Positions 12,388 to 16,572 are shown, counted from the first letter of the stretch. The stretch: 64,000 nucleotides of DNA from an uncultured archaeon (GCA_964610875.1 CAZSWP010000010.1:23764-87763), one strand, 5' to 3'. Notes: generated from the letters alone by a model not told the origin. Program-made: numbers and translations.

Positions 12388-12597
12388 TCAACTTGTCCTG
12401 GAATCAATATATCTGCCAAGTCGCGGAATCACAAGCAGGAATGCAACAATGTACCAGAGTAGGACACCTAGAGCGATTCCGATCCAAGGTAGATTGCTTG
12501 GGTCTGGGCTACCGAAACTTGCTACCAACGCGTCTTGACCAAGCCGTAACAGAAGGATTGGTAGTATTGCGACGACCAACAAGATAAACACCTTCAA
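12388..12597 (-). CDS. Small 2-TM protein (possible immunity protein or gene remnant)
   Basis: 69 aa, two hydrophobic helices, own terminator, weak TTG start. Confidence 0.45.
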   Translation of the reverse strand: MKVFILLVVAILPILLLRLGQDALVASFGSPDPSNLPWIGIALGVLLWYIVAFLLVIPRLGRYIDSRTS

Positions 12598-12801
12598 TAA
12601 AAGAACCTTTAAGATGTCCGATATTGATGCCTATCGAATATGCTCCATCCGTGTCATTCATTGGAGTTACATCATCAGAATCTGTGTCTTTATGATAGAT
12701 TTGGATTCATCGATGATTTCTCAAGTACGCTGCCTTTTTTATTTTCATCCGAATTATTATAATCATCTTTAAATAGTGATTGAAGTAATTTCGACAGAGA
12801 G

Positions 12802-13461
12802 TTGAATTGCAGGGCAATTCTAGCACTACGAATAAAAGTGCGCTATTCAAAACTGGAGGAGTATGCAATAAAATCGATTGCTATCAAGCTATCTCATTTT
12901 TTAAAAGAGCATATGAAAGATGGTATTTTCATTAGTTGCATTACAATGATTTGTGGCCAAGTCATAGGTGCTTTAATTGGACTAAGCTTTGATGCTCCAC
13001 GTCCAGAGGATCTAATCATTACGGATCCCCCTCCTCAGGAGTGGATTTTTCAAAACAATTCATCAGTAGCTCTTGGTCTATCCTTAGGTGGCCTATTATT
13101 CGGTGTCATCACAATCGCAATTCTTCTTTTTAATTCTATATTACTTGGTTACTGGGTTCAGGAAAGAATAAGATCACAAGGACCAATGATGGCCTTTCTT
13201 TTGGTGGTACCTCATGGGATATTTGAGATACCAGCATTGCTGCTAGCTGGAGCTGTAGGTGTTGAGATTGCGAAATGGACATTCCGTTTATTTATCTCTA
13301 GCCCAAGTTCTGAAGGGGAACAAATGGATAAAGAAGAAAACTCAGACGAAGTACTTATTAAGTGGGTAGTGTCGAGGATGATTGTAGTTGAGGTGCTACT
13401 ATGCATTGCTTCATATGTCGAAGCATATATTATACCTCTATTAGTCGGAATGCATATGTGA
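12802..13461 (+). CDS. SpoIIM/DUF95 family membrane protein
   Basis: IFQNN, ILLFN...G, PHGIFEIPA and ASYVEAYI motifs; true start may be ATG 12913. Confidence 0.88.
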   Translation: MNCRAILALRIKVRYSKLEEYAIKSIAIKLSHFLKEHMKDGIFISCITMICGQVIGALIGLSFDAPRPEDLIITDPPPQEWIFQNNSSVALGLSLGGLLFGVITIAILLFNSILLGYWVQERIRSQGPMMAFLLVVPHGIFEIPALLLAGAVGVEIAKWTFRLFISSPSSEGEQMDKEENSDEVLIKWVVSRMIVVEVLLCIASYVEAYIIPLLVGMHM

Positions 13462-13473
13462 TGTGGCAGAACC

Positions 13474-14094
13474 ATGAAAGATGATATTCGCAGGATTCTT
13501 TGGGTTTTTAGCAAGCCTCGAGAGGCTATCGAAGAGATACGAACTCAAGGAGTTGGGAAACATGGTGTAGCATTAGCACTACTTATCACCGGAATACTCA
13601 CAGCGATTTACTCGTTCTACTTTGGAATGGCATTGGTAAATCCTGTTCTTCCTTCGGATTCTGAGTTACTTCCCTTTGCTATTCTTGTGATTACACTAGT
13701 TCTTTTTATTACTAGTATTATGTTTATAGCTTTCACTTGGATTATTGTTACAGCGGCAGGTCATCTGTTGCTTCGAGTTCAAGTGTGCACCGGCGATTTC
13801 GATTCTTTCCACACTGGAAACGGCTATGCACTAATTGTTTTAGCAGTTCAACCAGTGATTGGTTTATTGCTCTTGATGATACTAGGTCCTGTTGATATTA
13901 TGTTTGCATACGATCTAATTAGTTCTATTATAGTCAGAATCTGGTATGGTGTAATAGTAGCATTATCTATGAAAGCAAATTATGATGGTACATGGAAGCA
14001 GATAGCAATATCTGTTACTATTGCATTAGTTATCATGACCTTTTACCCACTAATTCCGCAATACATTAGCTTTTCATTTGAACTACCTAGCTAA
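13474..14094 (+). CDS. Yip1-domain membrane protein
   Basis: N-terminal VFSKPREAIEEI followed by about five TM helices, HLLLR...G.F...GYA pattern. Confidence 0.75.
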   Translation: MKDDIRRILWVFSKPREAIEEIRTQGVGKHGVALALLITGILTAIYSFYFGMALVNPVLPSDSELLPFAILVITLVLFITSIMFIAFTWIIVTAAGHLLLRVQVCTGDFDSFHTGNGYALIVLAVQPVIGLLLLMILGPVDIMFAYDLISSIIVRIWYGVIVALSMKANYDGTWKQIAISVTIALVIMTFYPLIPQYISFSFELPS

Positions 14095-14127
14095 ATCAAA
14101 TTCCCTAATCGAGAGTGCTCAGGCATA

Positions 14128-15060
14128 ATGGCCGCAGATGAATCCCTACTAGACTTGACTCAACTTGAAAAGACATATGATAGTGTCGCTGCTCTAAAAG
14201 GAATAACTCTTAGTGTGGGTTTAGGGAAGGTGGGTCTTCTCGGTCCTAATGGAGCTGGCAAAACAACATTAATGAAAATAGCAACTGGTCTTATCAAACC
14301 CACATCAGGCAGCTGCAAAGTACTTGGCTTAGATCCTAGACAAGGACCTGCATTACACCAGAAAATCGGATATCTACCAGAGCACTTTGGATTCCCCTCA
14401 ATATCAATTTGGAAATACTTGATTCATGTTGGTCTGGTGTTCAATCTGTCTAAAAAACAAGCTGAAGACAATGTAAAAAAGATAATTCATGAACTTGATT
14501 TGTTAGAGCTGCGTGACCGCGACTGTACAAAGCTAAGTTCGGGGCAGAAACAACGACTTGGCTTGGCCCAAGTGTTGCTGCATAATCCTGAAATCCTTAT
14601 TCTTGATGAACCTGTTTCTTACTTAGATCCTTTTGGACGGAAGAGGTTTTTTGACTTTCTTGATACTATTCAAGAAGATCAAAGTGTTATTCTTTCGAGT
14701 CATATCTTAACTGATGTTGAACGAGCATGCGACAATGTTATTGTACTGAATCATGGAAAGGTTCTCTATTTTGGACCATTATCAAAGCTAAAAAAGAGTG
14801 AGACTCTAACCAAGTTCTTCCTAATTGTTTCAGATCCACGCGCTCTTATAGAAGAATTAAATGGACGCCCCTTTGTTGATAAAGCCTCTATCAAAGGAAG
14901 AGAAGTTATGATAGAAACTTCAGAACCTATTCCATTCCAAGAAGCGATATCTGGTTATTTAGCAAATGCAGGTGTTCGGTTAATGGGTATGAAGCAAGAG
15001 GAGGAGAGTCTTGAGGACTTGTTCTTGGAATTAGTAAGAAGGAGTGATACTAGTGGCTAA
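14128..15060 (+). CDS. ABC transporter ATP-binding protein
   Basis: GPNGAGKT, LSSGQ, ILDEP, SSH. Confidence 0.93.
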   Translation: MAADESLLDLTQLEKTYDSVAALKGITLSVGLGKVGLLGPNGAGKTTLMKIATGLIKPTSGSCKVLGLDPRQGPALHQKIGYLPEHFGFPSISIWKYLIHVGLVFNLSKKQAEDNVKKIIHELDLLELRDRDCTKLSSGQKQRLGLAQVLLHNPEILILDEPVSYLDPFGRKRFFDFLDTIQEDQSVILSSHILTDVERACDNVIVLNHGKVLYFGPLSKLKKSETLTKFFLIVSDPRALIEELNGRPFVDKASIKGREVMIETSEPIPFQEAISGYLANAGVRLMGMKQEEESLEDLFLELVRRSDTSG

Positions 15061-15910
15061 GAATCTAGAACTGAAATCAAAGTTACCCTTGCTCATGAAA
15101 CAGAATCTATCATGGTTTCTTGGTTCTCATAAGAATATCATTGTCCTTTTCTTATACTTATTAGTGGGTATTGTGTTCGGTGCTCTTATCAGACCAATAA
15201 ATGGCCTGTTTTCCGATCAAATGGGTGCAGAAACAGATTGGACTGACCCTGATACCGTAGGAAACATCTTCTATGGACTGACATCGTTGATCTTATTTGT
15301 CCCATTGATGATGTTAGCTACTTTTCAAGGGGCTCTATCGGGGAACAAGCTGATAGGTAGTGAAATGCAATCTCGTTTCATGATTGAGCTTGCCTGGCCA
15401 GTACGAAGAACAGAAATGATACTATCATTGATTGTCACTAAATTCAGCAAACGAGCTTCGAGTGCATTCTTAGTTTTCGTTGGAACATGGTTCTCATTTA
15501 ATGCATTTGCTTCTGCTGCAGAGATGAATTGGACATTCATCACTTCGCTTTCCATGGTTCTTGCAATATCATTGATTTTCTTGAGCTCGTATATATTAAG
15601 TATGGCTATTTCCTTACTAGCCAAAAGAGAATCAGCTAGTGCTGTAATAACATTGTTTGCGTTTCTGTTTCTAAATGCTATTTTCCGGACCATACATGGT
15701 CTCCTAGATCCGTCAAATTCCATACCGGGACTTGTTTGGATAAATAACATTGACTTAATGGGATGGTTCATGGCAATCGCATCTACTACAGTGGGATTGC
15801 CAGAAGGATATTCTATCGAGTTGCTTGTTTTAGCTATTAGTGCATTGATTGCGCTTCCATTAATCATAGCTATTGTCTTGTTCATGAAATTAGAGATACA
15901 TACCAGGTAA
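15044..15910 (+). CDS. ABC-2-type exporter permease
   Basis: About six TM helices, E....F...LAWPVRR pattern; overlaps the ATPase stop. Confidence 0.8.
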   Translation: MILVAKNLELKSKLPLLMKQNLSWFLGSHKNIIVLFLYLLVGIVFGALIRPINGLFSDQMGAETDWTDPDTVGNIFYGLTSLILFVPLMMLATFQGALSGNKLIGSEMQSRFMIELAWPVRRTEMILSLIVTKFSKRASSAFLVFVGTWFSFNAFASAAEMNWTFITSLSMVLAISLIFLSSYILSMAISLLAKRESASAVITLFAFLFLNAIFRTIHGLLDPSNSIPGLVWINNIDLMGWFMAIASTTVGLPEGYSIELLVLAISALIALPLIIAIVLFMKLEIHTR

Positions 15911-16059
15911 CCATTCGATTGATACGAATCACTAATCACAATATCAAGAACTCCATAATGACACCTGAAATTCAAAACTTATTTCAAAAAAGTATCAAGC
16001 ATAAGAGCTTCTTGGTGAAGCTCTTACCTTGAATTTGATCTAGATTCGTAGAAACCGAT

Positions 16060-16380
16060 TTACGCAGCTCCACCAGCAGCAATAAGAATAGCAATTATTG
16101 ACCATTGCCACATTTGAAATGTGAACGAGTAAAAGTGTCCAGCATAATATGTGGTAAGTGTCAACTCACTATTGTATCCCAAACCTAGAGACGCCATATT
16201 CATGACATAGTAGGTTATCGTGGCTGCTAAGGCTACCAATGCGATTGCAGGTGCCATGGCGAGTCCAAAACTTGCTGCAACAAGTGCTGCTGCCCCTCTA
16301 AAAAGTGGAAGCATGATTGCTGCTGCAAATGGAATAAATAGCATTTGCAGTGCTTTCTTATCTGAATTGTTCAACTCCAT
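16060..16380 (-). CDS. Candidate circular-bacteriocin-like precursor peptide (106 aa)
   Basis: ATG 16380 with GGAGAGG RBS; Ala/Gly-rich, nearly uncharged core LVAASFGLAMA...WSIIAILIAAGGAA; convergent with the SpoIIM-Yip1-ABC operon. Confidence 0.65.
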   Translation of the reverse strand: MELNNSDKKALQMLFIPFAAAIMLPLFRGAAALVAASFGLAMAPAIALVALAATITYYVMNMASLGLGYNSELTLTTYYAGHFYSFTFQMWQWSIIAILIAAGGAA

Positions 16381-16443
16381 AATGCATTTTCCTCTCCAAT
16401 TTTCGATTTGCCTTTTACAAGGCAAGATGCATACTACTAGCAC

Positions 16444-16459
16444 TCTTATAAGCATTTTG
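16444..16459 (-). promoter_or_regulatory. BRE/TATA box for the precursor gene
   Basis: CAAAATGC-TTATAA on the minus strand, about 65 nt upstream of the ATG. Confidence 0.5.
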
Positions 16460-16572
16460 AGCTTTGAGCACCAAAAGGGGCAATATATTCAGAAGAGTAT
16501 ATATCTTTGAGAGAATGGATGCCTGAAAAGAACGATCGTGGAATTCCTTAGATAGAAAGGAGGACATATGGA

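Follow-up and report, generated by a model that had tools for sequence, protein, structure and literature searches.

Positions 12284-19180 of a 64,000-nucleotide stretch of DNA from an uncultured archaeon (GCA_964610875.1 CAZSWP010000010.1:23764-87763; the whole stretch is referred to here as the window) enclose a module of seven genes, probably horizontally mobile, which we tentatively read as a circular-bacteriocin-like peptide, export and immunity module. The genes encode a SpoIIM/DUF95 membrane protein, a Yip1-family membrane protein, two ABC ATPases, a presumed permease, a large membrane protein with 12 transmembrane (12-TM) segments and a hydrophobic peptide of 106 amino acids (aa). This inventory matches annotated circular-bacteriocin clusters of bacteria gene for gene and is found in Asgard genomes in two different gene orders. 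That the gene set is of the circular-bacteriocin type had been proposed by an earlier reading made from the sequence alone, and published definitions of such clusters agree with it (PMC8534725, PMC8659200). The same sequence-only reading had placed the DNA in an Asgard archaeon, as the Lokiarchaeota/Promethearchaeota labels confirm. The source is a microbial-mat metagenome, for which three DNA sequencing runs of one study and no RNA run are listed.

Gene content of the module

The features of the module, in the coordinates of the window, are as follows (ORF, open reading frame; nt, nucleotides).

12802-13461, plus strand: SpoIIM/DUF95 membrane protein, given as the longest ORF; PF01944, E 9.1e-23, motif VVPHGIFEIPA
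13474-14094, plus strand: Yip1-family membrane protein, 206 aa; PF04893, E 1e-7, 32.5 bits against a cut-off of 28.6
14128-15060, plus strand: ABC ATPase 1 (ABC1), DrrA/GldA-like with a C-terminal DrrA-type domain; PF00005, 6e-28
15044-15910, plus strand: 288-aa polytopic membrane protein, presumed ABC-2-type permease, overlapping the ABC1 gene by 17 nt
16060-16380, minus strand: gene of the 106-aa precursor-like peptide (P0001), which starts MELNN; convergent to the SpoIIM operon
16381-16572, minus strand: divergent promoter region between the peptide gene and ABC2, with a Shine-Dalgarno sequence and two TATA-like elements
16573-17352, plus strand: ABC ATPase 2 (ABC2), 259 aa; PF00005; divergent from the peptide gene
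17349-18983, plus strand: 544-aa 12-TM membrane protein, sub-threshold PF09847, overlapping the ABC2 gene by 4 nt
12388-12597, minus strand: hydrophobic ORF of 69 aa with a TTG start, within the repeat-bounded segment

The four plus-strand genes from SpoIIM to the permease abut or overlap and form a tight operon at 12.8-15.9 kilobases (kb), and the SpoIIM gene with its PHGIFEIPA motif, the Yip1 gene and the ABC ATPase that had been recognised in this operon are all upheld by their family matches, that of Yip1 lying above the Pfam cut-off. The likely start of SpoIIM is the GTG at 12838 or the ATG at 12913, and the database entry, of 207 aa, begins at 12838; a PF18936 (DUF5684) match of the long form of the ORF was disregarded (E 0.047, below cut-off). 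The polytopic gene that had been named as an ABC-2 permease is in place and is translationally coupled to ABC1, however its family label rests on position, since the protein has no Pfam or NCBIfam match of its own, and the proteins at its position in related operons match ABC2_membrane_4 only weakly (E 0.004-0.006).

The second ABC pair had been offered as a possible addition for export or self-protection, it is instead a conserved core part of the module, and ABC2 and the 12-TM protein are by position and size the likely equivalents of the bacterial D and B genes. The end of the cluster as first outlined, at 12388-16460, was set too short, the functional unit running to 18983. The 69-aa ORF had been suggested as a small two-TM immunity gene, a suggestion that does not stand: besides its TTG start it has no Pfam or NCBIfam match, tblastn gave no counterpart in three related loci (L041, L042 and L044) and the flanks of two others (L043 and L135) hold no comparable small hydrophobic ORF. 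As the related modules lack a counterpart this ORF is doubtful as a gene.

Minimally, a circular-bacteriocin cluster consists of a precursor, a DUF95 protein and an ATPase (PMC8534725); beyond these, transporters, an immunity protein and hydrophobic proteins whose role is not known are typical, and Yip1 is frequent together with a three-gene accessory ABC set (PMC8659200). In the window the Yip1, ABC ATPase and permease genes of such an accessory set abut or overlap across 13474-15910. Known precursors are 61-132 aa long, with leaders of 2-56 aa and cores of 58-82 aa (PMC8659200; bioRxiv 10.1101/2025.10.31.685828), and an ORF of 102-127 aa adjoins the machinery and is conserved with it in five modules.

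The best match to the window's SpoIIM outside Asgard archaea (P0006, 37% identity) lies in a garvicin-ML-like locus on a Rep3/ParA plasmid contig (L050), where its neighbours are Yip1, two PF09221 precursors with a garvicin-ML-type MFE|LV start, a 554-aa membrane protein and an ABC ATPase. A second point of reference is plasmid pYGD30 of Bacillus thuringiensis (NZ_CP019231.1), which carries an annotated 99-aa precursor of the uberolysin/carnocyclin family, with PF09221 over residues 39-99 and a leader made up of MKIKK and a hydrophobic stretch; nearby are genes for a 572-aa protein, an ATPase, SpoIIM and a site-2 protease, along with an accessory set of MFP, ATPase and permease and two copies of Yip1. 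Compared with five "D" ATPases from true circular-bacteriocin clusters, ABC2 in every case scores above ABC1, and its identity to them is 36-37% (L050, L143, L145) or 30-32% (L146, L144). The large membrane protein beside the ATPase, 544 aa in the window and 491-501 aa in the second gene order, is B-like by size and position alone. An apparent homology between the large protein of one genome with the second gene order (G010) and the B protein of L050, with a pairwise E of 0.001, was lost in a multi-subject search and with a hidden Markov model of four bacterial B proteins.

The hydrophobic peptide gene

To judge from its sequence conservation the 106-aa hydrophobic ORF is a true gene. The N-terminus of its product, P0001, is polar (MELNNSDKKALQ); after it come a hydrophobic segment of 15 aa, RG and a 77-aa Ala/Gly-rich region that is almost uncharged and ends in AGGAA. 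A Shine-Dalgarno sequence, GGAGAGG, lies at 16391-16397, 10 nt ahead of the ATG, and upstream of it are the TATA-like elements CTTATAAG (16445-16452) and ATATATT (near 16482-16488); all three signals are kept in the homologous locus L044. There the gene has an orthologue at the same position, encoding P0016 (102 aa), which is 60% identical to P0001 over its full length with both termini included (E 2e-40). Between the two the ratio of nonsynonymous to synonymous substitution rates (dN/dS) is 0.33 (dN 0.35, dS 1.05), near the 0.14-0.38 of the neighbouring genes, so the peptide gene is under purifying selection. The convergent small hydrophobic gene with its own TATA element and ribosome-binding site that the sequence-only reading had described is thus well founded.

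Relatives of the peptide are few. An exhaustive HMMER search with P0001 gave a single one, P0016 (E 1e-25), a word-indexed search of 5.8 billion proteins returned P0001 itself and nothing else, and a protein-atlas feature search gave no usable match; a six-frame search of 60 relatives gave only weak low-complexity matches, with E above 0.006 and several of them with internal stops. The empty word-indexed search and the lack of a family match are what would be expected of a chance open frame in a coincidental neighbourhood. That explanation carries hardly any probability, since it is met by the orthologue found with HMMER, its syntenic position, the dN/dS and the conserved Shine-Dalgarno and TATA-like sequences, and by the recurrence of the seven functions, differently ordered, in another three genomes. 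The synteny of L044, the orthologue P0016 and the dN/dS effectively refute it.

Related modules in other Asgard genomes

The closest homologue of the window's SpoIIM (P0004, 64% identity) lies in L044, a locus of another Lokiarchaeon (GCA_016840385.1, plus an ENA contig), where the genes stand in the same order as in the window: SpoIIM, Yip1, ATPase, permease, a convergent 102-aa gene, then an ATPase and a 12-TM protein. This arrangement is called Type A here, and its genes compare between the window and L044 as follows.

SpoIIM: identity 64%, dN/dS 0.38
Yip1: identity 74%, dN/dS 0.25
ABC1: identity 78%, dN/dS 0.21
Permease: identity 63%, dN/dS 0.31
Peptide: identity 60%, dN/dS 0.33
ABC2: identity 82%, dN/dS 0.14
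12-TM protein: identity 65%, dN/dS 0.29

A further copy is found in a Promethearchaeota metagenome-assembled genome (G023; L041, contig C134, 4629-7274), in which SpoIIM, Yip1 and the ATPase are kept, the window's Yip1 being 74-75% identical to those of L044 and L041. This copy is decaying, for only 161 aa of its permease are left and it has lost both the peptide and the second transporter. It is flanked by a 1322-aa repetitive surface-type protein, and the 5' end of the gene for this protein is repeated at the other end of the contig. When the window's Yip1, permease, 12-TM protein and peptide were run with tblastn against 80 SpoIIM loci from GTDB species genomes, nothing was found outside the G023 locus.

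The second arrangement, Type B, occurs in G010, G012 and L135 (GCA_053491595.1) as a single co-directional operon, the SpoIIM matches in G010 and G012 being weaker. Its genes, in order, are the following.

Hydrophobic ORF, 117-127 aa
SpoIIM, 183-205 aa
Yip1, 235-238 aa
Membrane protein, 491-501 aa
ATPase, 247-250 aa
ATPase, 310-313 aa
Permease, 251-252 aa

Because the inventory recurs in this second gene order, the seven functions travel together. Homology between the two types is clear for SpoIIM (E 7e-16), the ATPases correspond one to one as reciprocal matches (ABC2 to the first Type B ATPase, ABC1 to the second) and the Yip1 proteins of both match the Pfam model. The peptides of the two types share an N-terminal motif of about D-x-K-x-A-x3-L-x-P-[LF] (hhalign E 0.023, 24 columns) and an aligned GY..N, and profile-profile comparison finds no homology past the first 24 residues. 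Such a shared N-terminal motif with a divergent remainder resembles a common leader with divergent cores.

Whether archaeal SpoIIM-Yip1-ABC loci consistently hold a small hydrophobic ORF had been put forward as a check on the whole idea, and they do: each of the five intact modules has exactly one conserved hydrophobic ORF, of 102-127 aa, and an intergenic scan of all modules gave no further conserved small ORF.

L044 also contains, at 17499-20356, a second and diverged pair of an ABC ATPase and a 12TM_1 protein, 62% and 37% identical to those of the window, which adjoins the gene of a 104-aa soluble protein. As SpoIIM, Yip1 and a peptide are all absent there, a pair of the ABC2/12-TM kind also occurs as a transporter on its own.

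Flanking repeats, probable mobility and rarity

The module is bracketed by a pair of exact direct repeats of 20 base pairs (bp), where 0.02 matches would be expected by chance, and a third copy lies further to the left.

11372-11391: third, diverged copy
12264-12283: left copy of the exact 20-bp direct repeat (AATTACATCTGCTTCTCTTG), 0 mismatches
19181-19200: right copy of the exact 20-bp direct repeat, covering the C-terminal codons and stop of a minus-strand ORF (19183-19686)

At lower identity the repeats extend to about 68 nt (11371-11438, 12263-12330 and 19180-19247), and the three copies are the 3' end of a minus-strand gene, encoding ...QEKQM-stop. The pattern looks like that left by insertion into the 3' end of a gene with target duplication. 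No recombinase was found in the module or its flanks.

The module is also rare and its surroundings differ: the peptide profile matches clearly in three of 400 Asgard genomes, the short-form SpoIIM of the module kind is present in 4 of 61 relatives, and outside the block the genes of L044 are others, with transaldolase and ribulose-phosphate epimerase as neighbours. The window's ORFs at 11669-12133, 19183-19686 and 19700-20254 have no tblastn counterpart in the loci tested (L041-L044 and L050), and the GC content here, 0.39-0.40, is slightly below that of most of the window. The mobility that had been supposed from the sequence gains some support from the flanking 20-bp repeat, the patchy distribution and the different neighbours.

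The flanks themselves (10133-12133 and 19183-20581) are made up of short or fragmentary ORFs, among them a zinc-ribbon membrane ORF, a C-terminal ABC2_membrane_2 fragment (19700-20254) and a 76-aa TPR-like N-terminal fragment (20354-20581, minus strand) that ends in a stop and whose relatives are generic TPR proteins only. These fragmentary ORFs suggest repeated rearrangement at this site.

A possible role for the peptide

If the module is of the circular-bacteriocin kind the 106-aa product would be a precursor, with its ~29 N-terminal residues as leader (a polar n-region, a 15-residue h-region and RG/GG). SpoIIM, the 12-TM protein and ABC2 would take the precursor into or across the membrane with removal of the leader, and could then ligate the new N-terminus to the C-terminal AGGAA, giving a continuous Ala-rich helix; in this they would be counterparts of the B, C and D proteins in bacterial clusters for head-to-tail cyclised bacteriocins. 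Yip1, ABC1 and the permease would form an accessory export or self-protection pump. We infer that the peptide would be the substrate of this machinery and not a subunit of it, that it would carry a leader cleavage site and that the product would be cyclised and antimicrobial. Cleavage is conceivable after G29-A31, as G29-A/L30-A31 is a possible -3/-1 site in both Type A peptides, or after N61, an Asn that is invariant in the four-peptide alignment and at which cleavage would leave 41-45 aa in Type A. To our knowledge the maturation of circular bacteriocins is mechanistically unsolved and no cyclase is known.

In its fullest form the proposal would be that Asgard (Lokiarchaeial) archaea produce head-to-tail cyclised peptides of a new subgroup, with uncharged, ultra-hydrophobic cores of ~70-77 residues and a shared leader motif read by SpoIIM/12-TM/ABC machinery that has its relatives in Gram-positive bacteria. 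A small mobile module bounded by repeats would carry the system, which would serve membrane-level antagonism or self/non-self interactions in mats; taken as a whole we consider this rather unlikely. Were it true, a system for circular-peptide maturation would extend to another domain of life, there would be very divergent SpoIIM/peptide pairs with which to work out what SpoIIM recognises, and conflict or signalling of Asgard archaea with the organisms around them could be approached through a concrete molecule.

A number of observations weigh against a circular-bacteriocin role, first of all those made on the peptides themselves. A HMMER check against circular-bacteriocin peptide profiles had been proposed and its outcome is negative, for none of the five peptides (P0001, P0016 and those of Type B) matches PF09221 or any other circular-bacteriocin family of Pfam or NCBIfam, with E allowed up to 0.1-1, and the positive controls, the precursors of L050, L145 and L146, do match PF09221. 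No match was found among PDB sequences either. The AlphaFold model of a Type A peptide is of low confidence (a predicted local distance difference test score, pLDDT, of 57), with long helices and a beta-hairpin, and that of a Type B peptide is likewise of low confidence (pLDDT 54), with a long N-terminal helix ahead of six others of 7-17 residues. The cores of known circular bacteriocins are built of helices alone, 4-5 of them in a compact saposin-like fold that places the termini next to each other, unlike the beta-hairpin in the low-confidence Type A model. A Foldseek search of the PDB with these low-confidence models gave noise only and no fold match. Past residue 29 the Type A peptides have one charged residue (P0001) or none (P0016), these putative cores have a grand average of hydropathy (GRAVY) of 1.09-1.43 against the published 0.5-1.1, which fits an integral membrane protein, and two Type B peptides end in Glu, unlike the hydrophobic, aromatic or Ala C-termini that are known. 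A complex prediction of SpoIIM with the peptide scored 0.00, with controls not run, and is evidence neither way.

The machinery adds to these points. There is no detectable homology by profile or pairwise comparison between the large membrane proteins of Type A and Type B, nor between their permeases; the 12-TM or "B" proteins have none with bacterial B proteins, which are themselves without a Pfam family, and the Asgard permeases have none with bacterial permeases. No conserved small immunity gene was found in any module by tblastn and an intergenic scan. The SpoIIM tree, of 115 rows, leaves its deep nodes unresolved, an ABC ATPase lies within 4 kb in only 11 of the 80 SpoIIM loci, and in Chloroflexi (L114, 7038-9408; L082, L087, L118 and L119) the gene after an ABC ATPase encodes an ABC-2-type permease of 477 aa that ends in a SpoIIM domain, in loci that have no bacteriocin context and no neighbouring peptide gene. 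SpoIIM alone is therefore not diagnostic.

Within the tree the module SpoIIMs of Type A (support 100) and Type B (support 87) both fall outside the clade of ~900-aa Asgard SpoIIM-fusion proteins (support 100) and outside a 74-row sporulation-type clade of Bacillota, Methanomicrobia and Chloroflexi (support 88); they sit in an unresolved region together with bacteriocin-associated DUF95 proteins, the nearest row by path being the DUF95 protein of L050. The tree is compatible with a bacteriocin-type origin, without proving one. The fusion protein, of ~800-1000 aa with a C-terminal SpoIIM domain, is present in most genomes of the window's family (G000 contig C6, 58750-59028, which is L010; L015-L040) and seems to be vertically inherited. 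Like the module, the Chloroflexi fusions and this Asgard fusion place a SpoIIM domain beside an ABC-2-type exporter; unlike it, they lack Yip1, a second transporter and a small hydrophobic ORF, and they belong to separate, well-supported SpoIIM clades. A plasmid search with the window's SpoIIM gave three weak matches only, which is no basis for assigning it a specific affinity to bacteriocin DUF95 proteins borne on plasmids. On a plasmid of Methanosphaera sp. ISO3-F5 (pNP174; L142, 5749-6471) a SpoIIM gene lies beside MATE-efflux fragments and a transposase, which is not a bacteriocin-like cluster.

The SpoIIM fusions bear on the main alternative explanation, in which several components make up a membrane system for export or resistance that produces no toxin and the 102-127-aa ORF is an integral membrane subunit or an immunity factor; one example would be protection against membrane-active peptides of neighbouring mat bacteria. 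We regard this as possible, though doubtful. The near absence of charge, the strong hydrophobicity and the TM-length segments of the peptides speak for it, as do the long helices of the low-confidence Type A model, the lack of a circular-bacteriocin family match and the occurrence of SpoIIM, fused or adjacent to ABC-2 permeases in Chloroflexi and in the ~900-aa Asgard protein, without a peptide gene. Yip1 (YknW) and an ABC transporter reportedly protect Bacillus subtilis against the SDP toxin, which would be a precedent for such a role. On the other side, known immunity proteins are ~50 aa long and cationic. Bacteriocin structural genes often come first in the operon or have a promoter to themselves, as the small ORF does in Type B and Type A respectively. 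What the peptides of the two types have in common is confined to a leader-like motif at the N-terminus, and the complete gene set, with the B-like protein and its ATPase, is the one found in producer clusters. Bacterial clusters also hold hydrophobic proteins of unknown role and DUF95 and ABC parts that contribute to immunity (PMC8659200), which again favours a subunit or immunity factor. Should the small protein prove to be a membrane subunit, the module would still define a new membrane complex of SpoIIM, Yip1 and dual ABC transporters.

It is also conceivable, though we think it improbable, that the peptide is exported as a linear hydrophobic product and never cyclised, with a Sec- or leader-type signal (n-region, h-region, G-x-A) cut by the general signal peptidase, and with the ABC systems, Yip1 and SpoIIM serving export or self-protection. 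The n-h-c layout of the N-terminus and the candidate site at G29-A/L30-A31 in both Type A peptides would suit such a product, and loci for leaderless or linear class II bacteriocins likewise have Yip1, which papers on leaderless bacteriocins mention (PMC11580447, PMC10707071). Against it, SpoIIM/DUF95 is among bacteriocin classes tied specifically to the circular one (PMC13289728, PMC8659200), and SpoIIM is conserved and translationally linked in all modules. A circular-bacteriocin-like module remains the reading we prefer, and it is in that light that the known systems are compared below.

Comparison with known systems

Nearly all circular bacteriocins described come from Bacillota, and published surveys list them in Firmicutes, a few Actinobacteria and one member of the Thermotogae (PMC8534725). 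No archaeal circular-bacteriocin cluster is reported there or in three further sources (PMC8659200, PMC12144867, bioRxiv 10.64898/2026.07.27.741052), the last two of which are recent surveys of archaeal ribosomally synthesised and post-translationally modified peptides and of archaeal bacteriocin homologues that make no mention of circular bacteriocins. The architecture is known from Bacillota, and what is new is the host domain and the peptide families.

Closest in gene content are the clusters of pYGD30 and of cerecyclin (cyc; PMC8534725), which like the Asgard module have a small precursor, SpoIIM, Yip1, a membrane protein of ~500-570 aa with an ATPase, and a second ATPase with a permease; clusters of the pYGD30 type and the Asgard module are moreover both accessory and, in the Asgard case probably, mobile. 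They differ in that the pYGD30 core has 7 K+R whereas the Asgard peptides are nearly uncharged and without a circular-bacteriocin family match, and in that the Asgard module has an archaeal host and lacks a small cationic immunity gene, a site-2 protease and an MFP component.

In size the nearest parallel is altitudin S, of a proposed subgroup III, which has a 132-aa precursor with a 56-aa leader and a 76-aa core (cores in the group being 75-82 aa) and is encoded in a SpoIIM/Yip1/ABC operon (bioRxiv 10.1101/2025.10.31.685828). With a precursor of 132 aa and a core of 76 aa in this case, the sizes of the Asgard ORFs are within the known range. The peptides of this group however carry a strong positive charge (+7 to +13) at a near-neutral GRAVY, and an M48 metallopeptidase is encoded in every one of their clusters, whereas the Asgard module is without a protease and its peptides are uncharged.

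In character the Asgard peptides come nearer to subgroup II (gassericin A, acidocin B and plantaricyclin A), whose members are hydrophobic and neutral or anionic, with leaders of 22-35 aa and cores ending in Ala (PMC8659200; bioRxiv 10.1101/2025.10.31.685828). The known cores of subgroup II are 58 aa long and form one sequence family, to which no sequence similarity of the Asgard peptides was detected. The Type A peptides end in AGGAA, which would be akin to the Ala ends of that subgroup, and their invariant N61 recalls its asparaginyl cleavage site.

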